Shown one piece after another: positions 171 through 16,094 of a DNA stretch of 60,893 bases. The first letter of the stretch is position 1, and every line of letters starts with the position of its first letter. This stretch comes from a virus (taxonomy: Duplodnaviria > Caudoviricetes): positions 1 to 60,893 of the IMG/VR virus record IMGVR_UViG_3300035704_000009; one strand, written 5' to 3'. The notes beneath the pieces are model-generated. The model was not told the DNA's origin. It made no database searches and saw only the letters and a list, made by a program, of their open reading frames with translations. The translations under genes were made by a program, and so were the position numbers.

Positions 171-197
171 GGTGCGTACACATCCTTTTTGGGTCGC

Positions 198-233: not shown

Positions 234-373
234 CGAAGCACATCTCGCTGCGTGTGCCGGACGAGTTGCTAGCGCGGCTTCAGGCCGCTGCTGGGCGGGA
301 TCGGCGCTCGCTGAACAGCGAGGTTTTGTGGCTGCTGGAGCGCGGGCTAGATCAGGACGAGGCTGGCGAGTGA
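230..373 (+). CDS. Arc-like ribbon-helix-helix DNA-binding protein
   Basis: MTKHISLRVPDELLARLQAAAGRDRRSLNSEVLWLLERGL has the Arc signature (LRxP...RSLNSE). GTGA overlap with tnpB. Confidence 0.85.
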   Translation: MTKHISLRVPDELLARLQAAAGRDRRSLNSEVLWLLERGLDQDEAGE

Positions 374-1572: not shown

Positions 1573-1632
1573 CAGCCCGGAATCCTCGGTCATGGCCCGG
1601 GGAGGATGCCAAAGCTCGCTCGATGGTCCTCA
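1480..1632 (+). ncRNA. Predicted omegaRNA/reRNA of TnpB #1; guide about 1613-1632 (AGCTCGCTCGATGGTCCTCA)
   Basis: Hairpin CGGGCTGC-CTA-GCAGCCCG (1561-1579), then IS605-type right end GGAATCCTC...GAGGATGCCAA ending at 1612. 5' boundary is approximate. Confidence 0.65.
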
Positions 1633-1902
1633 GTGTTCCTTGATGGTGACGTCGTAGAACTTCGTCGGATCGAAGGGTGGGTGGCTAATTGACGTGGCCG
1701 GACTGCCGCTGAAAGTAACCCTGACCATTACGGCGACTTGGTAGTCAGAGTTCAGGGCCCCGTACAACCACGTGATGTAGCCACCATCATCAGTAGTCGG
1801 ATCGGCGAGGTTTACGAACGACAAGACATTCCCGCTGGTGCCATCCGGGGCGCTATTGATATTGATGTGGGTGGCCGCAAGCACCACATCTCCGCTGGCC
1901 AT
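1630..1902 (-). CDS. Hypothetical protein (possibly virion-associated)
   Basis: 90 aa ORF coupled (TGATG) to the decoration gene; lower GC than neighbours. Confidence 0.65.
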   Translation of the reverse strand: MASGDVVLAATHININSAPDGTSGNVLSFVNLADPTTDDGGYITWLYGALNSDYQVAVMVRVTFSGSPATSISHPPFDPTKFYDVTIKEH

Positions 1903-2369
1903 CAGCCGAAGATGCGGGCTCGGCCCACGACGTTGGTGGCGACGACCACGCCGCCGGGCTGGGTGCAGCGGCCGATGATGGTCTCCGCGAGGGTGTCGGT
2001 GCCGCTGACCCAGGGGGTGACCTTGCCGCTGGCGGCGGACTTCAGGAGCGTCCCGAAGTCGCAGTCGATGGCGTAGGTGACGTGCATGTCGGCGCCGTGG
2101 TAGACGCTGACGTAGTCGGGCAGGACGCTGATGTCCACTAGCGGCTGGCCGTAGCCGGTGGTGTCGCCGGCCTGGTTGGGGATCGGCGCGGCGTCGTTCC
2201 CGGCCACGCCGAGGACGTTGAGCGCGCCGTGGCTGCTGGAACCGGCGCCGGCGACCGAGACCGTGGTGGCCGGGCTGGCGTCCGCGACGACCAGCTGGCC
2301 GCCGAGTACCTGCGCCGAGACCTGGTAGCTATCCGGGCCGTGCTTGACGTGGGGCAGAGAGCCGGGCAT
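1902..2369 (-). CDS. Head decoration/capsid cement-like protein
   Basis: Gly/Ala/Val-rich beta protein (VLGGQLV, VLGVAGNDA, LKSAASGKV) between scaffold and capsid genes. Confidence 0.65.
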   Translation of the reverse strand: MPGSLPHVKHGPDSYQVSAQVLGGQLVVADASPATTVSVAGAGSSSHGALNVLGVAGNDAAPIPNQAGDTTGYGQPLVDISVLPDYVSVYHGADMHVTYAIDCDFGTLLKSAASGKVTPWVSGTDTLAETIIGRCTQPGGVVVATNVVGRARIFG

Positions 2370-2397
2370 CGTTCACCGTCCTGTTGCGGGTTTGGGC

Positions 2398-2428
2398 ATG
2401 AAAAAAGCCCGCCAGGCGGACGGGCAGG
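2398..2428 (-). terminator. Intrinsic terminator-like hairpin
   Basis: Minus strand GCCCGTCCGCCTGGCGGGC followed by TTTTTTCATG. Confidence 0.6.
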
Positions 2429-2449
2429 GGTTTGGGATGAGGGGCTGGG

Positions 2450-2716
2450 CTAGTTGCTGGTGCCGACCTGGCCGCCTGTTTCCTGGACGGCGGACAGAGG
2501 CAGCAGGGCGTCCGCGTTGACGGTGGTGATCGCCGTGTACAGTTCCCCGCCGTCGTCCAGGACGATGGGCTGGCCCTTGGGGAACGTGGTGTCCTGCAGC
2601 TGGGTCCAGGTCGCCGGGTCGGTGGACGCGGAGCCGTTGCCGTTCAGGGCGTCCGGGACAGCCGTGCCGGCGGGGACCGTCACGTCAGCGGCGAGGGTGT
2701 AGGCGCCGATCGCCAT
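2450..2716 (-). CDS. Hypothetical head-region protein
   Basis: 88 aa ORF in operon orientation, directly after protease/scaffold. Confidence 0.7.
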   Translation of the reverse strand: MAIGAYTLAADVTVPAGTAVPDALNGNGSASTDPATWTQLQDTTFPKGQPIVLDDGGELYTAITTVNADALLPLSAVQETGGQVGTSN

Positions 2717-2719
2717 GGG

Positions 2720-4009
2720 CTAGAGGCCGTACTTGCCGGAGTGCACGATCTCGTTGACCAGGCCCTGCCGCTCGGCCACGGCGGCGTCCTCGGCGGCCTT
2801 CTCGGCCTCGGCGCTGAAGTCCAGCGGGGTGCCGAGCTCACCGGACAGGTCCAGCATCTTGACCGTCTTGCCGACCTCGGCGAAGACCTTGCGCATGATC
2901 GCGCCGGCGTCCACGGACGAGCCGTTGGCCAGTTCCACGACGTGGCCGTTCCCGCGCAGCAGCGGGCGGGCCAGGTCGGTGATCCGCGGCGGGATGCCGA
3001 ACTCGCGGGACAGGTGGCCGCGCTCCTTCTCGAACGCCGCGTCGTCCAGTGCGGAGGTGACCCGGGCCAGTTCCAGTTCGGTCTGCTCGGCGCGGGCGTT
3101 GGCCAGGTCGATCGCGGCCTGCTGCTCCGACGAGAACGCCGCGCCGGCCGTGGCAGGCACCTTGTCCTCCGCAGCCGGCTCCCCGTCCTCGCCGCCCTCG
3201 TCCTCATCCTCGGGGCCGTCCTCGGCGGGGAGGGAGTCGATGAGGGCCTGCAGTTCCTCGTCGGACAGCTCGTCCTCCGTGGCGCCTTCGGTGCCTTCCG
3301 GCGTGGTCTCGGCGGCGGCGAGGAGCGCGGTGAACTTGTCCTCGTCCAGGTCCAGCAGCCTGCCCAGCCGGGCTTCCTGCTCAGTGGTCAGGGCCATATC
3401 GTGTTCCTCCGTTGCGGGAGTGCCGGGGTCGGCTGGTGGTGTGTCCTGCGGTTCCGTCTTGCGGTGCTTCCCGGCCGTGGGACTTTCCGGGGCGGCGTAG
3501 TCGGTGTCGGTGAGGTCCAGGACTTCCCCGTCCTCGTTGGATGCCTCCACGGCCTGCCACGGGCGCATCCCGGTGATGCGGGGGTCCAGGGTGCCGAGGA
3601 CGTGCTGGAGGGCGATCCGGAAGTTCCGGCCGTCCGCGCGGGCATAGTCCTCCACGATCCGGGCCGACACGCCGAGGTGCGGGTTGGAGCGCAGCAGCGC
3701 GTCGCCGTCCTCGGTGGCCGCGACGATCACGTCCAGGCCGTCGTCGGTCATCTCGAGCGCCGCGACCTCGCCGCGGAAGCGCTCCGGGTCGTTGGAGTGG
3801 GAGTTGTCGCCCGGCGCGATCTGGAAGGGCACCTGGTCATAGGCGCGGTCCCGGAATGCCGCGGCCAGTTCGGTGAGGTACTGGCGGTCGAACCGGATCT
3901 TGCGGCCCTTGTAGTCAATGGTGCCTACGGGCAGGAGTTGCTTGCGCCAGATGCGCCGGCCCGCAGGCTGGGCGCTGCCCTTGTCATAGGGGGTCAGGAG
4001 CGCGGTCAT
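2720..4009 (-). CDS. Mu-like prohead protease fused to scaffold
   Basis: N-domain resembles Mu gpI-type protease (GTIDYKG..F, HSNDPE, GVSARI, HVLGTLDPRITGM); acidic coiled-coil C-half with an internal Met. Confidence 0.75.
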   Translation of the reverse strand: MTALLTPYDKGSAQPAGRRIWRKQLLPVGTIDYKGRKIRFDRQYLTELAAAFRDRAYDQVPFQIAPGDNSHSNDPERFRGEVAALEMTDDGLDVIVAATEDGDALLRSNPHLGVSARIVEDYARADGRNFRIALQHVLGTLDPRITGMRPWQAVEASNEDGEVLDLTDTDYAAPESPTAGKHRKTEPQDTPPADPGTPATEEHDMALTTEQEARLGRLLDLDEDKFTALLAAAETTPEGTEGATEDELSDEELQALIDSLPAEDGPEDEDEGGEDGEPAAEDKVPATAGAAFSSEQQAAIDLANARAEQTELELARVTSALDDAAFEKERGHLSREFGIPPRITDLARPLLRGNGHVVELANGSSVDAGAIMRKVFAEVGKTVKMLDLSGELGTPLDFSAEAEKAAEDAAVAERQGLVNEIVHSGKYGL

Positions 4010-5187
4010 GCTGCCGCCTTCTGGTGCATCGCCGCAGCCCGCCTGGCCAGCGCTTCGGCCTGGGCGGGCTTCATGCCCTTGGCGATCAGCTTCTTGTAGA
4101 CGGCCTGGGCGTAGGGGGACAGGCCAGACGGACCGCCGCTGCCGGCTGGCTTCCCGCTTCCCATGGTGGTCACCCGGGGGCCGTCAGAGGATGAGGCATT
4201 CGACGTGACCGGGAGCGACCCGGCGAGGTCCACGGCCTTCCCGTCGTCGTTGCTCGCGGCCACGCCCATCTGCTGGGCGGGTACCATCGCGGTGCCGGAC
4301 TTCGAGCCAGCGGCGAGGCGGTTGTGCACGGCGATCAGCCCGGCCAGCGCACCCTGCTGCGAACCTGACGCGGGGGCCTTGACTCCCGAGGCGTGGGTGC
4401 CCTGGTAGCCGCGTCCCTTCGCGGCCAGGGTGCCGACCTTCATGCCGGTGCTCTTGTGCTGCACGGTGATGGTGCCGGGGCCGGAGCGGCTCATCTGCAC
4501 GTCGGCGGCACCGCGGACCTTCGGCATCCTGCGGGCTGCGGCCATCTCGATCACCTTCCCGTGTTCTGCGGCCAGGCGCGTGGTGGAGGCGCTCGCGAGC
4601 GATGCGCGCTGCGCCCGGGCGACCAGTGCCCGCCCGGCCGGCGTGCCGATGTCGGCTTTGGCGACGGCTGCGGCGCGGCCTTCCCGGGTGGACAGATCCG
4701 GTGCACTGGGGTGCGTGTGGTCAAGGTCGCCGCGCATCCGGTGCTGCTCGGCGTGGCCAGCCTGCAACTGGGCGATCGACGGGCTCTTGGGGCCGACCCG
4801 CCGGCCGCCAGCGGGAACCCCGCTGTGATGCTCGGTCATGTGCTGGACCAGCTGACCCTTGGTGCCCTCGAAGACCCAGCCGTGGCTGTAGCCCTTCGGG
4901 CCGGTCAGCTCGACGGCCGGGCCGTCGTTCGCTGCCTGGAATGCCCAGGTGCCCTTCACGCCCGGCGCGTTCGTGGCCTTGAGCTCCTTGGCCCGCTTGC
5001 GGATCAGCGCGGCGAGGGCCGGGCGCTTGGAGGCGGGAGCGCGGCCGACCGAGCGGATCGCGCGCTTGAGGTAGTCCACGTTGGGGATCGGGAAACTCGG
5101 CGGCGAGCCGGGCGCAGCGGGCAGCGCCTGTCCCATGGCCGCGAGCTTCCTGCGGCCTGCGGCGCGCTGCGGTGGCGGTGTCTTCAC
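4006..5187 (-). CDS. Multi-module basic head/core protein
   Basis: Start re-assigned to GTG 5187 (GGAGG RBS); modules FPIPNVDYLKRAIRSVGRA and GPKGYSHGW; ATGA-coupled to protease. Confidence 0.7.
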   Translation of the reverse strand: MKTPPPQRAAGRRKLAAMGQALPAAPGSPPSFPIPNVDYLKRAIRSVGRAPASKRPALAALIRKRAKELKATNAPGVKGTWAFQAANDGPAVELTGPKGYSHGWVFEGTKGQLVQHMTEHHSGVPAGGRRVGPKSPSIAQLQAGHAEQHRMRGDLDHTHPSAPDLSTREGRAAAVAKADIGTPAGRALVARAQRASLASASTTRLAAEHGKVIEMAAARRMPKVRGAADVQMSRSGPGTITVQHKSTGMKVGTLAAKGRGYQGTHASGVKAPASGSQQGALAGLIAVHNRLAAGSKSGTAMVPAQQMGVAASNDDGKAVDLAGSLPVTSNASSSDGPRVTTMGSGKPAGSGGPSGLSPYAQAVYKKLIAKGMKPAQAEALARRAAAMHQKAAA

Positions 5188-5220
5188 TGCCCTGCCTCCC
5201 TGAGCCCTATCATCTGGCTT

Positions 5221-5487
5221 ATGCGGGAACGTCAGCGCCTCATGGTCAGCAGGCAGCACGGAGTCACTGCGCACACCGAGATCATTGATGATGACGCCGG
5301 CTTCGCGCAGCGGGCACGTGAGCTGAAAGACTGCGTGCCACCCGGCTTTGGTCCCGTCACGGGCCGGTTCATCGCTGTCACCTGCAACGGCTGCGGCGCT
5401 TCGGAGCGCCTGGACTTTGACCAGCCACAACTGCCCGGCAACTGGATCACGCGCGATTCCGGAGAGTTCTGTCCTGCCTGCCAGTGA
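5221..5487 (+). CDS. Small antisense leaderless gene, CxxC...CPxC zinc-binding protein
   Basis: TATCAT at 5208-5213, 7 nt before ATG; motifs CNGC and CPAC. Confidence 0.6.
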   Translation: MRERQRLMVSRQHGVTAHTEIIDDDAGFAQRARELKDCVPPGFGPVTGRFIAVTCNGCGASERLDFDQPQLPGNWITRDSGEFCPACQ

Positions 5488-5497
5488 AGACCGGGGG

Positions 5498-5593
5498 TTA
5501 GGACGCCACTGCCAGCCGGTCACCCCGCGCCCAGGAGTATCCGGGCGGTGGAAGGGTCGTAGCCCGCACCTGCGGTCTGCGCTCACCCATCGC
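5498..5593 (-). pseudogene. Displaced ancestral 3' end of the 7050-8621 gene; its start supplies the TnpB #2 guide
   Basis: Translates AMGERRPQVRATTLPPPGYSWARGDRLAVAS*, homologous to the resident C-terminus AMDAPQRAAMRSVILPPPGFEWTTADRLAVAAL*. Confidence 0.85.
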
Positions 5594-5720
5594 TTGACAT
5601 CCTCGCCAACCCTAAGGACGGCGATTCCTGGTGTGCTTATGCAGCACTTTCCAGAGGTTCACGGACGCTCGGTGTCGCCCCTCCGGCATGCCCTGCCGCG
5701 ATGTTGATACTGGCGTTGAG
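5574..5720 (-). ncRNA. Predicted omegaRNA of TnpB #2; guide about 5593-5574 (GCGATGGGTGAGCGCAGACC)
   Basis: Minus-strand right end GGAATCGCCGTCCTTAGGGTTGGCGAGGATGTCAA ending at 5594; 5' boundary approximate. Confidence 0.7.
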
Positions 5721-6878
5721 ATCCGCGTTGCAGGTGAAGCCACAGTTGGTGCAGACAAACTCGGCTTGGCTCTTGCGCGAGTTCTTGTCGATCCAACCGC
5801 AGCCGCTGCAACGCAGGCTGGTGTAGGCGGCCCTGACCTTCTCCACCCGGCCCGGCGCTTTGTCCTCGGTGCGCCGGGCCAGCATTCCCCAGCCCTGCGC
5901 AAGGATGGCCCGGGTTAGCCCGGATTTCTGCGCAACGTTCTTGCCTGGCCGCTGAATGGTGCCCTTGGCGCTGGCCGTCATGTTCACGATCCGCAGATCT
6001 TCAAAGCGGATCACATCAAATCGGCGGGCCAGTCCCGTGGAAGTCTTCTCTACCCAGTCCTTGCGGATGTCAGCGCTGCGGGCATGCAGCCGGCCAAGCT
6101 TGGCGTACTCGGCGGCCTTTGCCGGGGAATCCTTCGGCGCTCGCGCCGCACGCTGCTCGGCTTTCCGCAGCGCGGCTTCCTGCTGCACCGGGAGGCCGGG
6201 GCAGTGCAGGGTCTCGCCCGTTGATAGTGCGGCAGTGATTGCTATACCCCGGTCGATGCCTACGACCTCGCCCGTGCCGGGGCCTGGGATCGGTGCCGGA
6301 ATAACAGCGAAGCCCACGTGCCAGCGCCCGGACCGGTCCAGGGTTACCCGGAAGGACTTGCACTCAGGGACGGTGCGGGACCAGCGGAACCGGACCCAGC
6401 CGACCTTGGGGATCTTCACCTGGCCCCATCGGCGGTTGAGGCGCCGGGCATCCCAACTACAGCCCCCGCCGGGACCGCGCCTGCCCGTAATCCGGAAGCC
6501 TTCGTTCCGGTACTTCTTCCGGCGGCCGGGGTAGCCGTGCGTGCCAGCCAGAAAGTACCGGAAGGACTGCTCGAAATCCCGCAACGCCTGCTGCTGGACG
6601 TTCACCGAGCCTGCGGCTAGCCACTCAAACTCGGCACGCGCTTCGGTCAGCATCCGGCACTGTTCCATGAGTCCCGGTAGCGGGACGGTCGGACGCCGTT
6701 TCTGGTGAATGCAGGTGTTCCCGTCCCGATCCGTGCGACGGGAGGCGTTGCCGTAGGTTTCCAGTCGGCCGAAGTCATGCAGACTGGCGGCTAGGTTCCA
6801 TATGTACCGCGCATGCGCACAGTGCTGCCGCAGGATTGCCTCCTGCGGCACTGTCGGATACAGCCGGTACCTGGACAT
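5637..6878 (-). CDS. tnpB: TnpB RNA-guided nuclease #2, RuvC triad intact
   Basis: RYRLYPT; VGIDRG; IRFEDL; CSGCG/CTNCG; ADLNASINI. Confidence 0.95.
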   Translation of the reverse strand: MSRYRLYPTVPQEAILRQHCAHARYIWNLAASLHDFGRLETYGNASRRTDRDGNTCIHQKRRPTVPLPGLMEQCRMLTEARAEFEWLAAGSVNVQQQALRDFEQSFRYFLAGTHGYPGRRKKYRNEGFRITGRRGPGGGCSWDARRLNRRWGQVKIPKVGWVRFRWSRTVPECKSFRVTLDRSGRWHVGFAVIPAPIPGPGTGEVVGIDRGIAITAALSTGETLHCPGLPVQQEAALRKAEQRAARAPKDSPAKAAEYAKLGRLHARSADIRKDWVEKTSTGLARRFDVIRFEDLRIVNMTASAKGTIQRPGKNVAQKSGLTRAILAQGWGMLARRTEDKAPGRVEKVRAAYTSLRCSGCGWIDKNSRKSQAEFVCTNCGFTCNADLNASINIAAGHAGGATPSVREPLESAA

Positions 6879-6909
6879 GGGACCATTCTAGCGCAATTAT
6901 GGTCCCATG
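6876..6909. promoter_or_regulatory. Divergent promoter/operator between tnpB #2 and arc
   Basis: Perfect 11-bp inverted repeat CATGGGACCAT / ATGGTCCCATG containing both start codons; minus-strand TAGAAT 6 nt before the tnpB ATG (leaderless). Confidence 0.75.
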
Positions 6910-7053
6910 AAGCACGTCAACCTGCGTGTCCCCGACGACATCCACGCCGTGCTTGTGGCTGCCGCTGAGGCCGAACGCCGCTCGCTCAACAGCATGGTCA
7001 TCATCATGATCGAAGAAGCACTCCAACGCAGAGCGGATCACGCACAGGACTAG
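6907..7053 (+). CDS. Arc-like ribbon-helix-helix protein
   Basis: Not in ORF track: MKHVNLRVPDDIHAVLVAAAEAERRSLNSMVIIMIEEALQRRADHAQD; clear paralog of 230-373. Confidence 0.85.
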   Translation: MKHVNLRVPDDIHAVLVAAAEAERRSLNSMVIIMIEEALQRRADHAQD

Positions 7054-8621
7054 AGCGCAGCCACGGCGAGACGGTCTGCGGTGGTCCATTCAAAGCCAGG
7101 CGGGGGCAGTATGACTGATCGCATCGCCGCCCGTTGTGGGGCATCCATCGCGTTCACCGCCCGTGCGGCTTCCTCTGGCGTGTCGTGGCGGGTCAGGGAG
7201 GTCCGGGCGTGGAACTGGCCCCCCTCGCGCTTGCCGGGCGGGACACGCTCGGTGAGGGCCTCAGCGAACGCCATCTCGAGGAACCGTGTGCCGTCATCGC
7301 CGCCAGCCGCGAGCTTGATCGCCGCTGCCTGCTGGTCCAGCCCGGCCGCGTGGGCTTTCAGGGTCACCACCCGGGCCCGCAGCGTCTTGCGGGTAGCGCG
7401 CATCTGGGAGATCGTGGCCGTCTTCTTCGCCGCGGTCGCCGTGGTGCTCGCCGCGGTCGTGGTGGCCGCAGTCGTGGTGGCCGTGGTGCCCGCTGCGGTG
7501 GTCGTGGTGGTAGCAGCGGCAGGAGCGGTAGCGGCAGCCTTGACCGCAGTGGACGCCTTGGCGGTCGCGGACTTCTTGTTCGCCGCCGCTGCCTTCTGTG
7601 CCGCCGCCGCCTTGACTGCCGAGTGGATCGACGCGGTGAGGCTCGCGATCCGGGCGTTGATCGCCTTCGCCTTCGCCCGGTCGCCGGCGGCCTGCTTCAG
7701 GAGCCCGGCGCGCTTCTGGAGGGCCTGCTGGCGGGTCGCGGGCTTCGGGACTGGCTTGCCGGTCATCTTCGGCGAGGTCTTGGCGGGCTGCTTGGCTTTG
7801 GCGGGCTGCTTCGCTTTGGCGGGGGTCTTGGCCTTAGCCGGGGTCTTCGCGGCGGTCTTCGGTGGCGCGGCCTTGCTGGTGGCAGCCTTGCCGGCCGGGG
7901 CTTTCGCGGCAGCCTTCTTCGGGGCCGCCTTCTTTGCCGTGCTGGCTTTCGCGGTTTTTGCCGTGCTGGCCTTCCCGGTGCTCCCCGAGGAACTGGAGCC
8001 GCTGCCCTTCTTGGCGAACTGGCCGCCCGCGGAACTCCCGGCCGCGACATGCGGGTGCAGGGAGTCGGACGCGCCGCCGGTCGGCTGCTGCTTCCCGCCG
8101 CCGCCCTTGCCGCTGCTCTTCGCCCTCGGGCCGGTCGCACCCGTGGCGATGTTCACCTGCGCGGCGGTGGCCGGCTTCGCCGTCGCGGCTGGCTTGGCGC
8201 TCCTGGTGCCGCCTCCGCCACCGGGTGCCACCAGTGCCAGCTCCAGCCAGGAGCGGGCCATGGCCTCGCCGAGGTCACTGGACAGGTCCACGCCGTCACC
8301 GCCCTGGTTTGAGTGAGCATGAGCGCGGGCCTTCGCGGCTTCCCATTCGGCGAGAGCACGGGTGGCTGCGGCCTGGACATCCGGGTGGACGCGCTTGCCG
8401 TGCCCGGCGTCACCGGCCGCCCAGCGGCGGATTATGCCTACCGCCATCTCGATGGCAGTGCTCTCGTCCTTGGCGCTGCCGCTCCGCTGGAGAGCGTGCG
8501 CGACGTTCTGTATGTAGGCGGGCAACTGGAGGCCCTTGACCCGGAACAGGCCAGGGCCGGACGGGCTGCCGAACGGGTGATGCACCGTGGAGGCGGTCGC
8601 CGTCTGCGCGGTCAGGTCCAT
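7050..8621 (-). CDS. Ala/Lys/Thr-rich putative core/internal head protein
   Basis: Start ATG 8621 (TGATG coupling); LPAYIQNVAHAL domain, GGQF motifs, PAKAK repeats, poly-Thr tract. Confidence 0.7.
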   Translation of the reverse strand: MDLTAQTATASTVHHPFGSPSGPGLFRVKGLQLPAYIQNVAHALQRSGSAKDESTAIEMAVGIIRRWAAGDAGHGKRVHPDVQAAATRALAEWEAAKARAHAHSNQGGDGVDLSSDLGEAMARSWLELALVAPGGGGGTRSAKPAATAKPATAAQVNIATGATGPRAKSSGKGGGGKQQPTGGASDSLHPHVAAGSSAGGQFAKKGSGSSSSGSTGKASTAKTAKASTAKKAAPKKAAAKAPAGKAATSKAAPPKTAAKTPAKAKTPAKAKQPAKAKQPAKTSPKMTGKPVPKPATRQQALQKRAGLLKQAAGDRAKAKAINARIASLTASIHSAVKAAAAQKAAAANKKSATAKASTAVKAAATAPAAATTTTTAAGTTATTTAATTTAASTTATAAKKTATISQMRATRKTLRARVVTLKAHAAGLDQQAAAIKLAAGGDDGTRFLEMAFAEALTERVPPGKREGGQFHARTSLTRHDTPEEAARAVNAMDAPQRAAMRSVILPPPGFEWTTADRLAVAAL

Positions 8622-9055
8622 CAGCCCGCCTGCCTGCTGTGCACCTGGTCCCACGGGCCGTTCGCCGTCTTCGCGGTGCCCACCCATGCCGTCACCGGCT
8701 GGCCGAGCGCCTGGCAGGCCAGGGCGCGGGTGTGACCGTCAACCAGGCGCAGGAGCTTCGTGCCGGGCCTGCGTACCGCGACCACGGGCTTGCGGGTGCC
8801 CGAGCGGATCCGGGCCACGAACGCGGCGATCTTCGGCTTGTCCTTCGCCGCGAGTGCCCAGTTCGGGTCGGCAGCGCTGCGGTCGATCTGGCCGAGGGGC
8901 ACCAGCACCGGGCCCGGTGTCCAGGTCAGGTCGTCCACCCAGGCAAGGGCGCCTGGCGGGTAGTCGCGGGCCAGCTGGAGCTTCACTTCCTGCGCCGTGG
9001 TCAGCTTCCCCGGCGTGGCCAGCGCGGCGTGCGGATCCGAGACGCCTGCGGCCAT
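8621..9055 (-). CDS. ParB/Sulfiredoxin-like N-terminal domain protein
   Basis: PVVAV...LVDGHTRALA motif. Confidence 0.75.
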   Translation of the reverse strand: MAAGVSDPHAALATPGKLTTAQEVKLQLARDYPPGALAWVDDLTWTPGPVLVPLGQIDRSAADPNWALAAKDKPKIAAFVARIRSGTRKPVVAVRRPGTKLLRLVDGHTRALACQALGQPVTAWVGTAKTANGPWDQVHSRQAG

Positions 9056-9084
9056 GTCACCGCCCCGGCGTAGCATGCGTGGGC

Positions 9085-9417
9085 GTGACGGAGCACACAA
9101 GCGCAAGACTCGCGCGGGCGCTGTCCGCGATCCCCGGCGTGCCCCGCGAGATGATCAGGCGGGCGGTCGACGGTCACTACGACGACTACCTGAGCGAGTT
9201 CACGTTCCCGCTGATGGCGCTGGTGCGGGACCTGTCCGCGCTCGCCGCGATACCAGCCACGCCACGGGACTCCCGGCCGCTGCTGCGTGACCTCATCCGG
9301 CAGGTCAAGGCCGGGGAGTTCCGAGGCAGCAACGAGGAGGCGCGAGCGTGGATGGCGTCACCGGAGGGGCTGGAGACGATGCGCGAGATGGCGGCGGGCG
9401 AACTGCCAGCCGGCTAG
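9085..9417 (+). CDS. Antisense leaderless hypothetical protein
   Basis: TAGCAT at 9071-9076 before GTG; coherent 110 aa helical protein (GHYDDYLSEF...WMASPEG). Confidence 0.65.
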   Translation: MTEHTSARLARALSAIPGVPREMIRRAVDGHYDDYLSEFTFPLMALVRDLSALAAIPATPRDSRPLLRDLIRQVKAGEFRGSNEEARAWMASPEGLETMREMAAGELPAG

Positions 9418-9731
9418 GACTCCTGGCGGGTCCGGTCGATGACGTCCTCCACCAGATCCAGCGCCTGGACGAGGCCGTGCAGCCGCTCATGGTCGGCGGC
9501 GATCAGCAGCTCCGACCGCTCGCGCCCCACGAGGCGGAACGGCTTGCCGTCATGCAGCCACCGGCCGCCGTCGTAGCGGCTCGCCCCGCAGGTGCAGCGC
9601 TCTGCGAACGAGCCCTCGGGCAGGTAGCCGGACATCGCGGTGCGGTGACGGCGCAGGAGGCAGCGGATCACATCACGCGGGCCGCGTGGCTGATAGGCGA
9701 AATACTCACCGTCGATGCCATCCACCAGCAC
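9414..9731 (-). CDS. Hypothetical protein
   Basis: 105 aa ORF directly after the MuF-like gene. Confidence 0.55.
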   Translation of the reverse strand: MLVDGIDGEYFAYQPRGPRDVIRCLLRRHRTAMSGYLPEGSFAERCTCGASRYDGGRWLHDGKPFRLVGRERSELLIAADHERLHGLVQALDLVEDVIDRTRQES

Positions 9732-9738
9732 AGGGTAA

Positions 9739-10383
9739 CTACGGCAGCACAGGAGCGCCAGGGTGCGGCGGGCCCGGGAAACAGCGGCAGTTGGGGTGCG
9801 TGGTGCCGGGGTAGCCGATCTTCGGCGGACGGTCCGCGTAAAAGGACTTCCCGTCCGCTGTCCGGCACTCCGGCGTACATCTCGGGTCGATCACGGCATT
9901 CCACGAGAGCAACGGCCCGTGCATGGCCGCCGCGCCGTCAACCGCTGCCGCTGCGGCCATCCTCTGCTGCCCGGCGGCCACGTGTGCATTGAACCAGCGC
10001 CGCTCATCCCCGAGTGCGTCCAGTGCCGCCTGCGTGACCGGCTGGCCCTGGGAGCGTGCCGCGACGACGGCCTGCTGCACACGCTTCGCCGCCGCCAGGA
10101 AGAAGCTCGCCCTCCTGGTGAGATTGGCCCTCACGGCCCATCGCGTGGCGGGGCCGGTCCCTTCCATCACCTCGTGCGGCCAGGAGGCTACGAGGGACGC
10201 CACGGCGGCAAGAGCGGCACCTGAGATGCCAGCGGCCTTGAACGGGGCGCGGAGGGCCGCCGTGAGAGCCTTCGCGGTGTAGTACGCGGCAAGCGCAGCG
10301 ATTATCAGCTCAATGAGCTGATAATCGGCAGGTCGTTGCTGGGGCGGAACGGCCTGCTGCTGAGGTGCCGCCTGTACTGGCAA
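9739..10383 (-). CDS. MuF-like (SPP1 gp7) minor head protein
   Basis: C-terminal WNAVIDPRCTPEC...HPNCRC; GGAGG RBS with TTG start. Confidence 0.85.
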   Translation of the reverse strand: MPVQAAPQQQAVPPQQRPADYQLIELIIAALAAYYTAKALTAALRAPFKAAGISGAALAAVASLVASWPHEVMEGTGPATRWAVRANLTRRASFFLAAAKRVQQAVVAARSQGQPVTQAALDALGDERRWFNAHVAAGQQRMAAAAAVDGAAAMHGPLLSWNAVIDPRCTPECRTADGKSFYADRPPKIGYPGTTHPNCRCFPGPPHPGAPVLP

Positions 10384-10395
10384 ACAGGCACCTCC

Positions 10396-10520
10396 GAATG
10401 AGAGCCCCGTTCAAGGTGACTCCGCCGTCTAGGGGACAGCTTCTCAGGCGGCTTCCGCTGCCTGAAGGGCCAGCCCGGCCCTGAGAATGTTGATTGCCGC
10501 GTTCACGTCGGCGTGGGCCT
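10396..10520 (-). ncRNA. Predicted omegaRNA of TnpB #3; guide about 10415-10396 (CTTGAACGGGGCTCTCATTC)
   Basis: Minus-strand right end GAAGCTGTCCCCTAGACGGCGGAGTCAC ending at 10416; 5' boundary approximate. Confidence 0.6.
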
Positions 10521-11679
10521 CGTGCCCGCACCCGAGACAGCAAAAAGCCCCCCCATCGCGATTCTCCTCGGCGATATGCCCGCACCGGGCGCACCGCTGC
10601 GAGGTGAAGGCGGGGTTCACTGCGATGATCATCCGGGCAGCTTCTTCCGCTTTCTCGGCGAGGACTCGCAGGAACACCCCCCATCCCGCGTCGAGAATCG
10701 ATCTGTTAAGCCCCGATTTGGCCGCCGCACCGTTCGGCTCCCACGAGCCGTCTTCCGCCGGACGCGGCCTCGGGCGGCGGGTCATGTTCGTGACTTGGAG
10801 TGCCTCATGCGCTACAACGTCGTTCTCGCGGACGAGGCGGAGTGCGGTCTTATGGGCGTGGTCCAAGCGCTGTCGGCGGATCTTGGTATGCAGACGGGAA
10901 ACCTTCATCGCAGCGACGCGGTGTTTGCGCGTCCGATCTTGTGCCCTGCGCTGAGGGAATCCCGCTAGGGACTGCTGTGCCGCCGCAAGTTTGTCTGCCG
11001 TTGCTGCGCCGTACCTTGGGTTGGGGACGTGCTTCCCGGTCGAGGTAGACAGGAAGTGCGTCACGCCCATATCGATGCCAACCACCGCGCCCGTGGCCGG
11101 GAGCGGCTCGGCGGGAACGTCGTCGCACGCCAGGATCACGTACCAGCGATTGCCCTCGCGCTTGGCGGTGATGGTCTTCACGCGCCCCTTCACGGTCCGG
11201 TGCTGGTGGACCCGGACGTGGCCGATGCCGAGGAAGCGGACGCGCGTCACGGTTGGGTGCGGGACAGAATCCCAGCAGGCACCGGCCTTTACAGCGGCCC
11301 ACTCCAGCGAATCGAACCGGCCTCGGCTCTTGAATCGTGGATACCCGGATCGCTCTCCGGCCTTTATGCGGCGGAAGAACGCCGCAAATGCCCAGTCAAG
11401 ACGGCGGATGGCGGCGCGCTCACAGGCGAAGGCCCATCGGCCGACACCGTTTGGGTCGGCCAGGCGGATCTCCTGAAGCTGAGCATCCTGGCTGTAGAAG
11501 GTGACCTGGCGATGGCCCATCCGCCACGCCTCCCGCCGCTCCTCAAGGGCGGCGTTGTACAACTGCCTCGTGTCCTCCAGGCACGCCTCAAGTGCAGTGA
11601 CCTGCTTAGAGGTCGGCCGCAGGAGGAACTTGTATGCTCGGAACATCTGCACCGGGTGTTGGTAGTCGGTGTGGGTCAC
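10444..11679 (-). CDS. tnpB: TnpB RNA-guided nuclease #3, RuvC triad intact (true start may be ATG 11646)
   Basis: RAYKFLLRPT..Q; LYNAALEER; YPRFKS; VGIDMG; VAHEAL; CARCGH/CLGCGH; ADVNAAINI. More distant from #1 and #2 than they are from each other. Confidence 0.95.
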   Translation of the reverse strand: MTHTDYQHPVQMFRAYKFLLRPTSKQVTALEACLEDTRQLYNAALEERREAWRMGHRQVTFYSQDAQLQEIRLADPNGVGRWAFACERAAIRRLDWAFAAFFRRIKAGERSGYPRFKSRGRFDSLEWAAVKAGACWDSVPHPTVTRVRFLGIGHVRVHQHRTVKGRVKTITAKREGNRWYVILACDDVPAEPLPATGAVVGIDMGVTHFLSTSTGKHVPNPRYGAATADKLAAAQQSLAGFPQRRAQDRTRKHRVAAMKVSRLHTKIRRQRLDHAHKTALRLVRENDVVAHEALQVTNMTRRPRPRPAEDGSWEPNGAAAKSGLNRSILDAGWGVFLRVLAEKAEEAARMIIAVNPAFTSQRCARCGHIAEENRDGGAFCCLGCGHEAHADVNAAINILRAGLALQAAEAA

Positions 11680-11780
11680 CGGCCCCGGACGTTCGCCCGT
11701 CGCGGGGCCACTTCTGGAAAAGCTTACCCGGTCAGTGCCGACAGCTGCCCGTATGACACCCCTGCATGCCCCCTGTTTTT

Positions 11781-11884
11781 CACGCCCCGTGTGAGGGCCT
11801 GGGCGGTGAAGTACGCGCCGAGGGCGGCGAGGATGGCGGCTGCCGCTGGGGCTGCTGTGGTGGTGCCTGGGTGGCAGTTGGCAT
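11781..11884 (-). pseudogene. Displaced, frameshifted ancestral 5' end of the MuF-like gene
   Basis: MPTATQAPPQQPQRQP, then shifted frame ILAALGAYFTAQALTRGV, versus resident MPVQAAPQQQ...IIAALAAYYTAKALTAAL. RBS/start contexts also match (GAGGTGACCTGATGCCA vs GAGGTGCCTGTTTGCCA). Confidence 0.85.
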
Positions 11885-11913
11885 CAGGTCACCTCGCGGC
11901 TAGCGTCAGAGCC

Positions 11914-12201
11914 ATGACCACGGCCACGCCGCTTGAAGATCCGGCTTACCAGCCCCGGTACCCACCCGCTGGCGGGCTGCCGCCGGACGTCGTGGCCAAG
12001 TGGGGCCCGCGCAGCCAGGTCCGGTGGTTCGACCGCTATCGCGGGCAACTGCGGCGCGCGCCGTCTGCCTTCTGGGACCGCTTCTACTGCACCACGACCG
12101 CGCATCGCGGGAACTGCTGCACCAGTTGCGAGAGCGACTGGCTCATGGGCTACGCGGAAGACATGGAAAGGTGCTGCTGCCGGGCCTACCCGGAGGAATA
12201 G
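11914..12201 (+). CDS. Antisense leaderless Cys-rich hypothetical protein
   Basis: TAGCGT at 11901-11906, 7 nt before ATG; C..H..CCxxC...CCC. Confidence 0.6.
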   Translation: MTTATPLEDPAYQPRYPPAGGLPPDVVAKWGPRSQVRWFDRYRGQLRRAPSAFWDRFYCTTTAHRGNCCTSCESDWLMGYAEDMERCCCRAYPEE

Positions 12202-12204
12202 CAC

Positions 12205-13737
12205 CTAGGCCTTCGGGACACCCTGGATAGGCACGCTGAACGGCTCGTTGATGTCCTCCGGCAGCGGTGCCTTCGACCCGCGCACCAGAGCCTGCTGCGC
12301 GACCTTCGCCGCCGCGTTCACCCCGCCGGCGAGGTGGCCGAGCTGCGCCGCTGCCTTCGGCGGCATCCCCGGCGGTGCCTGCGCGGTGGCCTGCGCCTCG
12401 CGGTCCTTCGCGCCCTGCTGCACGATCGCCGCCACCGCGTCGACGTCCAGGTCCAGCACCGTCGCCAGCCGTTCGGTGATCAGGTCCAGGATCGCGGGCG
12501 GCACCTGCAGGGATGGCGCGACGGCGAGGGACTGGAACAAGCCCACCAGCGACGCCTGGCTCTCATCGGTCAGGGCGCCGAACTTGAACGTGGGGAAGCT
12601 CGCGCCCGGGCCGAAGTTCAGCGTCACCAGGGGGGCGATGACGTCGTGGGTGATCGTCTCGGCGATCTCCTGGCTGATGGCCTGCCGGGACTTGAGGAAG
12701 AACGCGCTCTGGTCCTGGGACAGCGCCAGCGAGCCGCGGCCGAGAGAGGCGAGGGAGGCGAGGCCGGTGAACCCGGCCAGGACGCTCCCCGTCTGCCACG
12801 TCTCGAGGAAGCTGAGGGCGTCGGCGAACTGCCCGGCACCCTTGCCGTCGCTGGCCAGGACCTCGAAGGTCTTGGCCCCGGCCGGGTCGCGGGCGAAGCC
12901 CACCACGCCGGAGGACCGCAGCGAGGCGATGTCGTCAGCCTTCGCGTTGGCCTCGCGCTGGTCCTGGCCGTACACGATGACCTTGGGGAGGCTCTGGGAT
13001 TCCAGGAACTGATACCACAAAAAAATTAGCTTGGTCTTCGTGCGGTACGCCCAGTGGCACAGTTCCAACTCGGACGTGCCGGTCAGCGGCTGGCGGTGCT
13101 TCCCGTTGATGTGGATCAGCGAACGGATACGGCTCACATCCACGTAACCGGGCAGTTTGCTCTGCTTCTGCTGGGCGAGTTGGGCACCCCACAACCAGGT
13201 TTGCTGGCGGAACCCGGTGATCGCGCCGTTCTTCGGGTCGCGCTTCAGTTCGCAGGTCGCGGCGGGGCGGAACGCCAGCTTGTCGTAAACGATCTTGCCG
13301 TCATCCCGGATCGTGAAGACTTTTTCATGGAACGATTTGCGGTAGATCTGGGCACCCGTTACCTGGCCGACCACTTCCGACATGGGCGTCTTCATGCCGC
13401 CCGAGGTGTGCGGGTCCATCAGCACCGAGTTGCAGAACTCCGCCTCGCCCTTGTCGCCCTTCGCCGGCTCGATCGCGCGGGCCGCCTGCCGGATGGGCAG
13501 GGTCAGGACGGCTTCCAGGGCAGCGGCTTGTCCATCCCTCTCGATCATGACCTGGAAGTCCCGGGAAGTGACCTGGCCATAGTCGAACACCGAGCCATCG
13601 GTGCCGAACAGGCCGAACATGCGGTTGCCCAGAAGATCGAACTCGGACCCGATCTCCGCGCCGAGCAGTTGCTTCCGTGTCGCTGGCTTCAGGTCGGGGA
13701 AGGCGACGATCCGGGCGGTCTGCGGGTCAGGAGCCAC
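12205..13737 (-). CDS. Portal protein (Mu gp29/DUF935-like)
   Basis: 510 aa, between terminase and MuF; GSLALSQDQ...IAETITHDVIAPLVTLNFG...PTFKF pattern. Confidence 0.85.
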   Translation of the reverse strand: MAPDPQTARIVAFPDLKPATRKQLLGAEIGSEFDLLGNRMFGLFGTDGSVFDYGQVTSRDFQVMIERDGQAAALEAVLTLPIRQAARAIEPAKGDKGEAEFCNSVLMDPHTSGGMKTPMSEVVGQVTGAQIYRKSFHEKVFTIRDDGKIVYDKLAFRPAATCELKRDPKNGAITGFRQQTWLWGAQLAQQKQSKLPGYVDVSRIRSLIHINGKHRQPLTGTSELELCHWAYRTKTKLIFLWYQFLESQSLPKVIVYGQDQREANAKADDIASLRSSGVVGFARDPAGAKTFEVLASDGKGAGQFADALSFLETWQTGSVLAGFTGLASLASLGRGSLALSQDQSAFFLKSRQAISQEIAETITHDVIAPLVTLNFGPGASFPTFKFGALTDESQASLVGLFQSLAVAPSLQVPPAILDLITERLATVLDLDVDAVAAIVQQGAKDREAQATAQAPPGMPPKAAAQLGHLAGGVNAAAKVAQQALVRGSKAPLPEDINEPFSVPIQGVPKA

Positions 13738-13768
13738 TGGATGCGCTCCCTCCGGTTACGCTGCGGGA

Positions 13769-14143
13769 ATGGAGCCGCCGAGCGTTATCGACATCACCCG
13801 CCGCGAGGGCTGGTTCATCGCCTGGTGCCCGGAGTGCGGCCTGGAGCGGGAACTACCGCACGGCTGGCAGGACATCCTGCGGGCCTCGATGCCGCCCGCC
13901 GAGGCCCTGACATGGGACGGCGTGATGCGGTGCCGGGAGCATGGCCGGCAGGAGATGACGCTCACCGAGTTCGCCCTGCACCCGGAGCGCGGCGGCCTGC
14001 CGGTGATCCACCTTGTCCGCGACGATGACCGGGCCAGGACCGCATGCACTGGGGCGCCATGGCAGCCGCCGCCCCACGCCTTCCGGCCGCACCTGCCGAG
14101 GATGCAGTGCCAGGCTTGCTACCGGCTCGTCATCGGCCGCTGA
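13769..14143 (+). CDS. Antisense leaderless zinc-binding hypothetical protein
   Basis: TACGCT at 13757-13762, 6 nt before ATG; CPEC, CREH, CQAC. Confidence 0.6.
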   Translation: MEPPSVIDITRREGWFIAWCPECGLERELPHGWQDILRASMPPAEALTWDGVMRCREHGRQEMTLTEFALHPERGGLPVIHLVRDDDRARTACTGAPWQPPPHAFRPHLPRMQCQACYRLVIGR

Positions 14144-14374
14144 TCAGTTCGACACCCCGACCTTGATGCCGGGCTGCCCTCGCAAAACGTTCGCCGGCGT
14201 CGTGTTGTCCACAGAATCCGGGTCAGCGACCGCGATCTTGCCCGCAGCCAGGAGTGCGATGGTGGACGGCTTGGCCGGGTCCAGCGGCAGCACGTTCCCG
14301 GCCGGGCATGGCCACGAGGCGATCACCGAGGAGACCTCAAGGTCCACGAGCGCCGTGTAGAGGATGGTGGCCAC
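14144..14374 (-). CDS. Hypothetical virion-associated protein
   Basis: 76 aa; similar layout and ending (VGVSN) to 2450-2716 (VGTSN). Confidence 0.6.
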   Translation of the reverse strand: MATILYTALVDLEVSSVIASWPCPAGNVLPLDPAKPSTIALLAAGKIAVADPDSVDNTTPANVLRGQPGIKVGVSN

Positions 14375-14390
14375 GGCTACCTCCCGCTGC

Positions 14391-15059
14391 TCAGGCGAGC
14401 ACCATCTGGCTGAGGCGGCGGGCTGCTTGCTCGGCGTAGCGTTCGTCGATCTCGATGCCGATCGCGCGGCGGCCGAGGTTGCGCGCGGCGACGAGAGTGC
14501 TGCCTGAGCCGGCGAACGGGTCCGCGATCACCCCTGGCGGGCAGGCCGCGATCAGAGTCTCCATCACGTCGACGGGCTTCGCGTGCGGGTGGCCGTGGCG
14601 GATCGCTAGACCGTAGGTGCTCGCCACGCCCCGGGCTCCGGTCGTCAGGATGCTCGACTGGCCCCCGATACCGCTGCCCCATGGGCCGACGAGGTAGACC
14701 GCTTCCGCGTCCCGGCGGAAACCACCTGTTGCCCCCCTGACTCCCGCGCCCTGCGGCTTGGCGTACACCATGACCTGCTTGGTCCCAGCGGGCGGCGCCA
14801 GCATCAGGTCACCGAAGACGACAGCGCACCCACCGCCCCAGAGCGTCAGGGCCTCGTCACGAGTAGTGGTGCCTTCGTCGCCTGCGATGCCACCAATGGC
14901 ATTGTTCGGGCAGCGGTAGAGCTTGCCGGTATCCCCCTGCTTCCAGTTCCGCCCGTACGGCGGGTCGGTCACGAGCACGTCAGCGGCCAGCCACTCGGCA
15001 ACTTCCCGGCAGTCGCCGTGATACAGCGTCACGAGGTCGTCGGACCAGTACGGCTCCAA
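14391..15059 (-). CDS. Amino-DNA methyltransferase (N6A/N4C, beta class)
   Basis: LYHGDC, TDPPY, HPHAKP, DPFAGSGST, GIEIDERY; TTG start after GGAGG. Confidence 0.9.
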   Translation of the reverse strand: MEPYWSDDLVTLYHGDCREVAEWLAADVLVTDPPYGRNWKQGDTGKLYRCPNNAIGGIAGDEGTTTRDEALTLWGGGCAVVFGDLMLAPPAGTKQVMVYAKPQGAGVRGATGGFRRDAEAVYLVGPWGSGIGGQSSILTTGARGVASTYGLAIRHGHPHAKPVDVMETLIAACPPGVIADPFAGSGSTLVAARNLGRRAIGIEIDERYAEQAARRLSQMVLA

Positions 15060-15067
15060 CGGGCCTC

Positions 15068-15412
15068 CTAGCCGCTCACCAGCCCGGCACCATGCCCGTT
15101 GCCCGCGCTGGCCGGAACTTCCAGCAGCTTCTTCCGTGCCGCGGCCAGCTCGTCCAGGCACATGCCCACCGCGGCGGACAGGGTCGCGTCGTCGGGCCAG
15201 GCGTCGGGGATGAGCTGGGCGTGGGCCATGCGGGGCGGGACGAGGACCGGGGAACGGCAGGAGATGATCACCATGTAGCCGGCGGTGAAGCCCTGCGGGC
15301 CGGGAACGAGTGAGGGGCCCACGTCGTAGCCGTAGTCCTCGGCGGGGCAGCGCTCGGCCAGCGCGCGGGCGACGGCGGCGCGGAGCTTGTCCCGGCGGTC
15401 GGTCGCGGTCAT
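15068..15412 (-). CDS. Hypothetical protein
   Basis: 114 aa ORF with GGAGG RBS. Confidence 0.65.
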   Translation of the reverse strand: MTATDRRDKLRAAVARALAERCPAEDYGYDVGPSLVPGPQGFTAGYMVIISCRSPVLVPPRMAHAQLIPDAWPDDATLSAAVGMCLDELAAARKKLLEVPASAGNGHGAGLVSG

Positions 15413-15429
15413 GGCACCTCCCGTAGCGC

Positions 15430-15470
15430 TTGACAGGGTGGTATTGCCACCGCTAGAGTGGTACTACCAC
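15430..15470 (+). promoter_or_regulatory. Sigma70-type promoter with two palindromic operators
   Basis: TTGACA-18 nt-TAGAGT; operators GGTGGTATTGCCACC and GTGGTACTACCAC. Confidence 0.75.
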
Positions 15471-15488
15471 CTAGAGAGAGAGCACGGG

Positions 15489-15689
15489 ATGACCAGGCAG
15501 CAGATCCTCGCCCAGCTAAAAGACCGCCACCAGATCGACCCGTGCATGGGTTCCCGCTGGCTGGAGACCAGCGACATCGAGGAAGCCGTGGACGTCGCGT
15601 GCATCCGTGGTCATGCGTACCTGAATGACGAAGTCATCACCTGGAGCAACGGTGCTGGCTATGGCTTCACCAAAGACGGTCATGCCTAG
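15489..15689 (+). CDS. Small hypothetical protein
   Basis: ATG 15489 after GAGAG; first gene of the antisense cassette. Confidence 0.6.
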   Translation: MTRQQILAQLKDRHQIDPCMGSRWLETSDIEEAVDVACIRGHAYLNDEVITWSNGAGYGFTKDGHA

Positions 15690-15873
15690 CCAGCACAAGC
15701 ACCCGCCGATCGCCTTCCGTCCACCGGAGGGCGATCGTGCGCTGCTGCTCAGGCACGCAGCCGAGACGGGCAAGCCGGTCAACCGCATCCTCGCCGAGGC
15801 GCTGTCGGCATACCTGAAGGCCGCAGGGCTTGACGCTCAGCCCAGCCCGCCAGTTCCGCACCGGGGGCAGTAG
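15682..15873 (+). CDS. Ribbon-helix-helix DNA-binding protein
   Basis: HPPIAFRPPEGDRALLLRHAAETGKPVNRILAEALSAYL. Confidence 0.75.
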   Translation: MPSQHKHPPIAFRPPEGDRALLLRHAAETGKPVNRILAEALSAYLKAAGLDAQPSPPVPHRGQ

Positions 15874-16094
15874 GAGCCGTTCTTCTGCCGCACGCCCTTC
15901 GGGTGCGGGCACGGAGGGCGCACGTGCCGTCCGGGTGGCTCCGTCGCGGCCTCGATGACTGGCTCGGTCACCGGGGACAGCCGCAGGCCGATCGCGCCCA
16001 GGATCCACGCTGAGCGGGATTCCTCGCCGCGCACCTCGTCGATGGCCGCGAGCACTGGTTCCGGGACGCTGAGCCGTACTACAGGTGAGGCCAT
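15837..16094 (-). CDS. RHH protein with C-terminal Cys/His motif
   Basis: VVRLSVPEPVLAAIDEVRGEESRSAWI; CPHP...CPRC. Confidence 0.7.
   Translation of the reverse strand: MASPVVRLSVPEPVLAAIDEVRGEESRSAWILGAIGLRLSPVTEPVIEAATEPPGRHVRPPCPHPKGVRQKNGSYCPRCGTGGLG

Follow-up and report, generated by a model that had tools for sequence, protein, structure and literature searches.

How did a gene for a TnpB-type nuclease come to lie between the portal gene and the minor head protein gene of a tailed phage, and was the break through which it entered made by the nuclease itself? This question is raised by IMGVR_UViG_3300035704_000009, a complete IMG/VR virus record (Duplodnaviria; Caudoviricetes; 60,893 bases, 70% G+C, estimated to be 55% complete) that was analyzed over its whole length and is referred to here as the window. 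Its nearest named relatives in INPHARED are six distant Streptomyces phages, with 68-70% identity over 4-7% of a 5.6-kb query. The order on the minus strand is the portal gene (13737-12205), a fragment resembling the 5' part of MuF (from 11884), a tnpB gene (11679-10444), a short spacer and an intact MuF gene (10383-9739). In relatives, the portal gene is followed by a variable spacer and then by MuF, with no tnpB in between; tnpB was absent from this position in all nine relatives spanning both genes, which amounts to a presence/absence polymorphism at the site, as nuclease-driven homing predicts. Judged from the homologies described below, the insertion of this cassette (cassette 3, encoding TnpB #3) into MuF at a single point, together with a segment that replaces the 5' end of the gene, can be regarded as solid.

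The resident MuF is the minor head protein (Phage Mu F/SPP1 gp7) according to its Phage_Mu_F domain (E value 2.7e-8, score 35 against a cut-off of 29.6) and its place after the portal gene, as in nine relatives. Upstream of tnpB, homology to MuF relatives identifies an old MuF 5' remnant (11884-11781, minus strand), which has its own ribosome-binding site (RBS; GAGGTG, about 11895-11890) and an ATG at 11884. Codons 1-13 from this ATG read MPTATQAPPQQPQ; the MuF-like reading then shifts frame (AAAAILAALGAYFTAQALTRGV) at an internal frameshift or deletion near 11846, beyond which the MuF-like frame reads AAILAALGAYFTAQALTRGV, and the frame of the ATG itself ends at the TGA at 11782-11780. At the DNA level, homology to relatives extends from the RBS through the GTG at 11783-11781, with none past this codon. 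The GTG aligns to L44 of the resident protein and of all relatives, and this leucine (valine in the remnant) stands exactly one residue before APFK in all 54 motif-bearing MuF homologs. The intact gene has a new RBS (GGAGGTG, 10395-10389, minus strand) located 5 nucleotides (nt) before its TTG start, and the spacing of this RBS and the codons that follow match the RBS and start of the remnant. Codons 1-45 of the intact gene (10383-10249, minus strand) appear to be a foreign "rescue" 5' end, as suggested by their low G+C content at third codon positions (GC3) and differing lineage, and codons 46-214 (10248-9739, minus strand), which contain the Pfam domain Phage_Mu_F, are what remains of the resident gene.

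The separate origins of these parts were visible when segments were compared against 84 of the 85 MuF homologs found by protein search. The remnant peptide was closest to P0005 (82%), P0014 (77%) and P0012 (73%), and residues 50-135 of the resident protein were closest to P0005 (91%), P0012 (85%), and P0014 and P0015 (both 84%). The remnant and residues 50-135 have the same top four homologs of the 84, whereas residues 1-45 differ, with P0031 as the best homolog (60%) and P0005 reaching only 47%. The change of lineage, as read from lineage-specific residues, falls between position 44 (TAAL) and position 59 (AALA), and the stretch between the two is identical in all lineages. GC3 amounts to 30/45 in the new 5' end, 20/22 in the remnant and 1461/1649 (0.886) in four structural genes, and the value of the new 5' end deviates from this structural-gene background with a binomial P of 8.5e-5. 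By these comparisons, the resident MuF is a chimera, and the remnant and the resident body are two halves of one former gene. The shared homologs and the lineage switch imply that the insert, consisting of the cassette, its guide, the RBS and about 45 foreign codons, entered at one point. As far as the alignments resolve them, both junctions of the insert fall on one site in the old gene, as expected from a single break and unlike two independent crossovers. DNA of the remnant lineage (P0005) reached at most 62% in viral contigs and was found in none of 3, and then in none of 401, genomes of the G001 family; for the lineage of the new 5' end (P0007 against viral contigs), no closer relative was detected.

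Two additional features of MuF were observed. A second mosaic junction is present further downstream, where residues 150-214 (9739-9935) have P0003 as their best homolog (91%) and are only 49% similar to P0005. In addition, a perfect palindrome of 14+14 nt with a 1-nt centre occupies 10299-10327, about codons 19-28 (DYQLIELII). Its A+T content is high by the standards of this genome; no palindrome occurs at this place in relatives, and its core has no exact copy in viral contigs.

The nuclease gene of the cassette (tnpB #3; 11679-10444, minus strand) encodes 411 amino acids from a GTG, with the conserved MFRAYKF beginning at 11646, and was assigned by Pfam and by structure alignment. The domains HTH_OrfB_IS605, OrfB_IS605 and Cas12f1-like_TNB were detected with E values of 5.8e-9, 7.7e-19 and 3.7e-20, respectively, all past the curated cut-offs, and the protein aligns over its full length to the ISDra2 TnpB structures 8bf8 and 8h1j (E value about 1e-32). 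The RuvC residues D203, E292 and D391 are all present, and the loss of RuvC residues that would mark a nuclease-dead protein is not seen. E292 (in AHEAL) and D391 (in HADVN) align with E and D residues of ISDra2, which we take to be catalytic, and D203 aligns with D191 of ISDra2, the role of which is described in PMC8612924. By its domains, its RuvC D-E-D triad and its omegaRNA, TnpB #3 is a member of the TnpB (IS200/IS605 OrfB) family of RNA-guided nucleases. In a search of 5.8 billion proteins, the best-matching TnpB reached 74% identity, and relatives were found at 54 loci in genome contigs (identity up to 62%) and 40 in metagenome contigs (up to 69%). A scan of viral contigs returned no relative, and none of the relatives' loci adjoins a portal or MuF gene.

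The end of the omegaRNA scaffold fixes the start of the guide. In a 3'-end alignment of 50 homologous tnpB loci and the window, conservation ends exactly after the invariant GGAGTCAC, and the flanks past this motif are unrelated among the loci of the family. A 31-sequence alignment yielded a consensus structure with 28 predicted pairs, 11 of which show compensatory changes, and a covariance model (R1) built from 30 relatives with the window left out matches 10516-10416 (minus strand) over model positions 1-115 of 115 (74.2 bits, E value 3.8e-19). The scaffold, whose 3' part was modelled, is therefore placed at 10516-10416, where it overlaps the 3' end of tnpB and terminates with the invariant motif at 10423-10416; guide nt 1 is consequently position 10415. 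The first 18 nt of the guide (10415-10398, minus strand) comprise nt 1-12 at 10415-10404 and nt 13-18, which read TCTCAT. No matching Rfam family was found for this omegaRNA, and an Rfam search of positions 1-16000 gave no match.

The first 12 nt of the guide, when reverse-complemented, are identical to MuF codons 46-49 (A-P-F-K; 10237-10248). The corresponding sequence CTTGAACGGGGC occurs in the window only at 10404-10415 (minus strand) and 10237-10248 (plus strand), also when one mismatch is allowed, and a repeat search delimited a perfect 13-bp inverted repeat (10236-10248/10404-10416) that includes the last scaffold base. Nt 13-18 (reverse complement ATG AGA) agree with the resident CTC CGC of codons 44-45 at only two of six positions. 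Because of the one-residue spacing to APFK, the GTG of the remnant pairs with guide nt 16-18, matching at two of the three positions. An earlier note on this DNA, made from the sequence alone, had assumed a guide start at 10415 and had described the 12-nt match within the 13-bp inverted repeat, the ATG AGA in place of CTC CGC, and a frameshifted remnant (11884-11781) ending at the codon aligned to guide nt 16-18; all four statements were borne out, the guide start by both the 50-locus alignment and the covariance model made without the window.

Such an arrangement is rare. Of 60882 positions of the window, 48 have an exact inverted partner of 12 nt no more than 200 nt away; a seed-anchored guide match of at least 10 nt within the element's own fetched locus was found at none of 48 distinct family loci; and none of six related phages carrying the MuF motif has an upstream inverted partner longer than 8 nt. 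The match is thus a feature neither of the TnpB family nor of the MuF locus. No other DNA stretch of the MuF 5' region is as conserved as its partner, and the 13-nt match is present in four of six relatives at the DNA level. Cassettes 1 and 2 of the same phage show no comparable guide match, only scattered 10-12-nt matches tens of kb away, and a search of the whole window for the target-adjacent motif (TAM) plus guide gave no hits with up to three mismatches. Several other candidates were considered and rejected. An 8-nt direct repeat common to the guide and MuF codons 38-41 (GGCTCTCA) was dropped, as our own estimate of its chance expectation is about 20%; the flank after the right end might have been where a small divergent gene begins, of the kind represented by the open reading frame (ORF) at 11914-12201, but no such ORF was found in relatives; and an antisense insertion followed by inversion would reproduce the guide, but only by way of a dead intermediate and with the same TAM that is missing here.

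The position of the remnant end also points to TnpB. According to PMC8612924, the cuts made by ISDra2 TnpB lie 15 bp from the TAM on the non-target strand and 20-21 bp from it on the target strand, with 5' overhangs as the product, in agreement with the figure of about 15-21 nt given in the earlier note. If the coding strand of MuF was the target strand and the TAM-distal end was filled in, the coding strand would end at guide position 16, which is where the remnant stops; the last base of its GTG corresponds to position 16, the expected end of a filled-in ISDra2-type cut. The would-be TnpB site occupies 10232-10248 (plus strand), with GCGGC at the TAM position (10232-10236) followed by the 12-nt seed match (10237-10248). 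On this basis, it is plausible that the break was made by TnpB #3, although we would stop somewhat short of calling it probable.

A P0005-like MuF that was once a single gene is interrupted between codon 44 (..ALTRGV) and RAPFK, and the events could have proceeded as follows. The ribonucleoprotein of TnpB #3, or of a recent ancestor carried by a co-infecting phage, would have paired with the coding strand of MuF and made the break. The TAM-distal end, filled in to guide position 16, would have become the end of the remnant and might have been connected to a point within the donor's left end, through end-joining or microhomology. At the other end, homologous recombination within the conserved RAPFKAAGISG stretch would have brought in tnpB with its omegaRNA and guide, together with the RBS and the new MuF start. 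In the present gene, the new 5' part is fused in frame to the old remainder, leaving MuF intact, and the old 5' part persists upstream in decay. The resident site would now be safe from its own nuclease, owing to the mismatches at guide nt 13-18 (two of six matching) and the lack of a family TAM.

The left side of the cassette does not look like the end of a transposon. The 35 nt at the left junction (11780-11746, minus strand) have no counterpart in relatives and contain neither a CCATC TAM nor a left-end hairpin. The adjoining segment (11745-11680, minus strand), delimited by alignment with L064, L065, L067 and L068, is a retained inner left end or a 5' untranslated region (5' UTR), with a promoter-like TGTCGG..TAAGCT and a hairpin (GGCCCCG..CGGGGCC); similarity to the upstream regions of the nearest relatives starts only at about 11743-11735. 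In 17 of 19 tnpA-tnpB relatives, the family TAM CCATC precedes the left end and a left-end hairpin follows, and when 13 further loci were aligned, CCATC stood at the start of the upstream similarity in L010, L067, L068, L069, L073, L077 and L080. No CCATC exists between 11680 and 11831, and the only one nearby (11836-11832) is inside MuF-homologous sequence. Of the properties of a mobilisable IS200/IS605 element, cassette 3 lacks the left end with subterminal hairpin and TAM, and a tnpA in cis or elsewhere in the genome was not found within the window (tblastn with family TnpA gave chance matches only, E value 1.5 or worse, in a record about 55% complete). As its left end is missing, cassette 3 was not inserted by TnpA transposition and is not mobilisable as it stands. 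A possible microhomology (GGGGCGTGAA-like), although weak, would connect the remnant end with the L068 and L010 left ends. Within the retained segment, the hairpin before tnpB (11680-11712) keeps its pairing through sequence changes in L064-L069, L077, L080 and L010, and a conserved TGTCAG..TA-rich element precedes it in relatives; together, they may constitute a promoter with a 5'-UTR structure of this tnpB family.

A number of observations weigh against a break made by TnpB, the TAM among them. After the APFK motif, MuF alleles read AA (50), TA, AI, RA or RI, which gives a GCNGC-like sequence at the TAM position. None of the 54 motif-bearing alleles contains K-D-G, without which the complement of CCATC cannot be encoded, and the site in the window is GCGGC, so the old allele very probably had no family TAM either. 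For ISDra2, PMC8612924 states that cleavage of double-stranded DNA required both TAM and target, and Meers et al. (PMC10055086) call TnpB strict on the TAM. Homing would leave the same cassette in several genomes and naive alleles with a cleavable target; instead, the nearest TnpB is 74% identical, and, although the 13-nt match is present in four of six relatives, the TAM position reads GCNGC, with CCATC encodable in 0/54 alleles. The guide 18-mer has no exact match in viral contigs, and the cassette is a singleton with no sign of spread. Moreover, the verifiable guide match is only 12 nt long, and among the roughly 250,000 windows scanned, a chance event at the level of about 1e-4 to 1e-5 could conceivably turn up. 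A helix made by the inverted repeat is also part of the best fold of the read-through RNA. Finally, we know of no process that puts an inverted copy of the target directly after a right end.

It is possible that the TAM of TnpB #3 itself differs from CCATC, or that the enzyme may cut single-stranded DNA without a TAM, an activity against matching single strands that is recorded for ISDra2 TnpB in PMC8612924. The proposal of the earlier note that the cassette was captured at its own double-strand break is thus upheld in part: cassette, RBS and MuF start did arrive at one point, but the TnpB cut is unproven and conflicts with the TAM. Its suggestion that an altered TAM protects the resident copy fails, given that the family TAM is CCATC and could be encoded in 0/54 MuF alleles. 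The comparison of MuF loci in relatives that it had called for was carried out with a divided outcome, in that tnpB is absent from all nine relatives, as expected, and CCATC is offered by 0/54 alleles.

The same structure could have arisen through recombination between two co-infecting phages, one of which carried an insertion sequence upstream of MuF, with no cleavage by TnpB. One crossover would have been illegitimate, inside the left end, and the other homologous, in the most conserved stretch of MuF; the product would have survived through its intact MuF, and the 12-nt match would be due to chance or to a by-product of joining, such as a templated patch. A break, if there was one, may stem from a quasi-palindrome of the old allele (ACGGGGC-N6-GCCCCGT). 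The missing left end, the lack of a TAM at the junction and at every MuF allele, the possible junction microhomology, the singleton status of the cassette and the number of windows scanned would all fit such an event, and MuF is a three-part mosaic, which implies frequent recombination in this gene. It gives no reason, however, why two independent crossovers should fall at the same point, within at most 15 codons, or why a seed-anchored 12-nt match of such rarity (48/60882 positions and 0/48 loci) should lie beside that point, with a repeat partner located where the DNA of the MuF 5' region is most conserved, as a nuclease target would be. We consider recombination of this kind a possible explanation, somewhat less likely than a TnpB-made break.

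The inverted repeat might instead act without any cutting, which we regard as improbable. At the RNA level, the guide end of a tnpB-MuF read-through transcript would pair with codons 46-49 and hide the RBS of MuF; alternatively, the TnpB-omegaRNA complex would bind MuF DNA or mRNA as a regulator. A 206-nt read-through RNA (10430-10225, minus strand) is predicted to fold with -104 kcal/mol (z = -6.5; none of 200 shuffles as low), and here the 13-bp helix closes off a domain containing the 14-bp palindrome and a hairpin that sequesters the RBS. The low energy comes mainly from local hairpins, however, and the helix has no counterpart in six relatives, none of which shows more than 8 nt. A binding role is at odds with the catalytic residues kept in TnpB #3, unlike in known nuclease-dead TnpB repressors, and neither role explains why the end of the remnant lies beside the repeat.

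Three tnpB genes are present in the window (328-1572, plus strand; 5637-6878, minus strand; 10444-11679, minus strand), with a mutual identity of only about 33%, and one of the other cassettes resembles cassette 3 in its layout. On either side of cassette 2 (tnpB 6878-5637) lies a diverged copy of the final 31-33 codons of the upstream gene, which encodes 545 amino acids (7050-8687). The in-frame copy (7050-7151, minus strand; AMDAPQ..LAVAAL*), which ends this gene, has a low GC3 (21/33), and the orphan copy downstream (5498-5593, minus strand; AMGERR..LAVAS*) begins where guide 2 begins; only the first 7 nt are common to both copies, after which they diverge. From the arrangement of these copies, cassette 2 is a mirror image of the cassette 3 layout, but with a canonical guide reading into the old gene end. 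The occurrence of a second case in the same phage suggests that a cassette with a rescue copy inside an essential gene is a recurring design and not a one-off accident. No flank duplication was seen at cassette 1. Its omegaRNA (1464-1612, plus strand) gives a weak match to the family model (17.7 bits, E value 0.006) that ends at 1612; past this position, the sequence enters a convergent gene at its stop codon, in antisense orientation. Small ORFs lie beside tnpB #1 (about 230-330, plus strand, same direction) and tnpB #2 (about 6893-7052, plus strand, divergent), the latter with a stop codon that overlaps the stop of the 7050-8687 gene in CTAG. Similar small ORFs precede tnpB in L014, L017, L020, L027 and L070-L073; from reading of the peptides, a ribbon-helix-helix fold is putatively assigned to them.

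Regarding the neighbourhood of MuF, the upstream gene encodes a Mu-type portal (12205-13737, minus strand; Pfam Portal_Mu, E value 1.9e-26). Between it and the remnant, an ORF for a cysteine-rich peptide of 95 amino acids lies on the opposite strand (11914-12201, plus strand), with no Pfam match and no homolog among the fetched relatives, and the portal-MuF spacer is different in each relative. In the related viral contig L113, a gap of about 1 kb divides the match to the portal (2288-2983/4001-4861) between residues 230 and 221, which suggests an insertion (an intron, intein or mobile gene). A scan for consensus promoters and terminators found none.

Cassette 3 can be compared with several known systems. 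The TnpB-omegaRNA of IS200/IS605 elements (ISDra2, GstIS) cuts the empty site, consisting of TAM and flank, after which homologous repair restores the transposon. TnpB is known to keep its own transposon in this way, and according to the review PMC13565253, copying into co-infecting phages has the status of a theoretical proposal only. Cassette 3 shares with these elements the protein family, the intact RuvC triad, an omegaRNA overlapping the 3' end of tnpB at the right end, and a guide directly after the scaffold. It differs in having no tnpA and no recognisable left end or TAM, in carrying a replacement gene start, and in guide nt 1-12, which are an inverted copy of sequence beside the insertion point and not a continuation of the target. 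The same review deals with intronless homing by free-standing endonucleases of T-even phages (SegF, SegG and MobE). As in those cases, the nuclease gene lies beside a conserved essential gene that it would cut in phages without the nuclease, its own copy is protected by sequence differences, and flanking gene segments are co-converted. Unlike in those cases, recognition would be by an RNA guide, a duplicated and diverged gene end is left behind, and cutting and spread are only proposed. A further comparison is offered by TldRs, nuclease-dead TnpB-like repressors with guides to non-adjacent promoters (PMC10705468). Like these proteins, TnpB #3 belongs to the TnpB relatives encoded by phages or prophages and has a guide whose match is not simply the flank of a transposon; unlike them, it keeps D203, E292 and D391, and the match lies in a coding region and not in a promoter. 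On this comparison, the case is close in its logic to intronless homing and appears to be a variant within TnpB/omegaRNA biology.

The same logic underlies synthetic cleave-and-rescue or home-and-rescue drives, in which Cas9 engineered into animals attacks an essential gene and an uncuttable recoded copy of that gene is supplied. Cassette 3 would be a natural layout of this type, inferred only. In its widest form, the proposal would be that natural cleave-and-rescue homing cassettes with RNA guides exist in this phage, each combining TnpB and omegaRNA within an essential head gene with a diverged replacement of the gene end, and that the guide of cassette 3, uncoupled from the flank and inverted with respect to the best-conserved MuF motif that it copies, directs cutting of competitors' MuF on the opposite strand, perhaps as single-stranded DNA without a TAM, after which the cassette is copied in and a remnant is left. 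We think this comprehensive version unlikely, yet worth stating. A literature search found no paper on TnpB cassettes that split phage structural genes and carry a rescue copy; the MuF chimera, the missing left end and the second case at cassette 2 are new in this analysis.

If TnpB did make the break, the locus would represent the first case in which TnpB cleavage has left a natural scar in a virus, with a remnant at the expected cut, the cassette and a rescue copy side by side. It would also mean that a guide can be aimed beyond the plain flank, a step from transposon nucleases towards programmable systems. Even without a TnpB-made break, the locus illustrates how a selfish cassette can be tolerated inside an essential gene without killing the phage, in a layout that occurs twice in a single phage.

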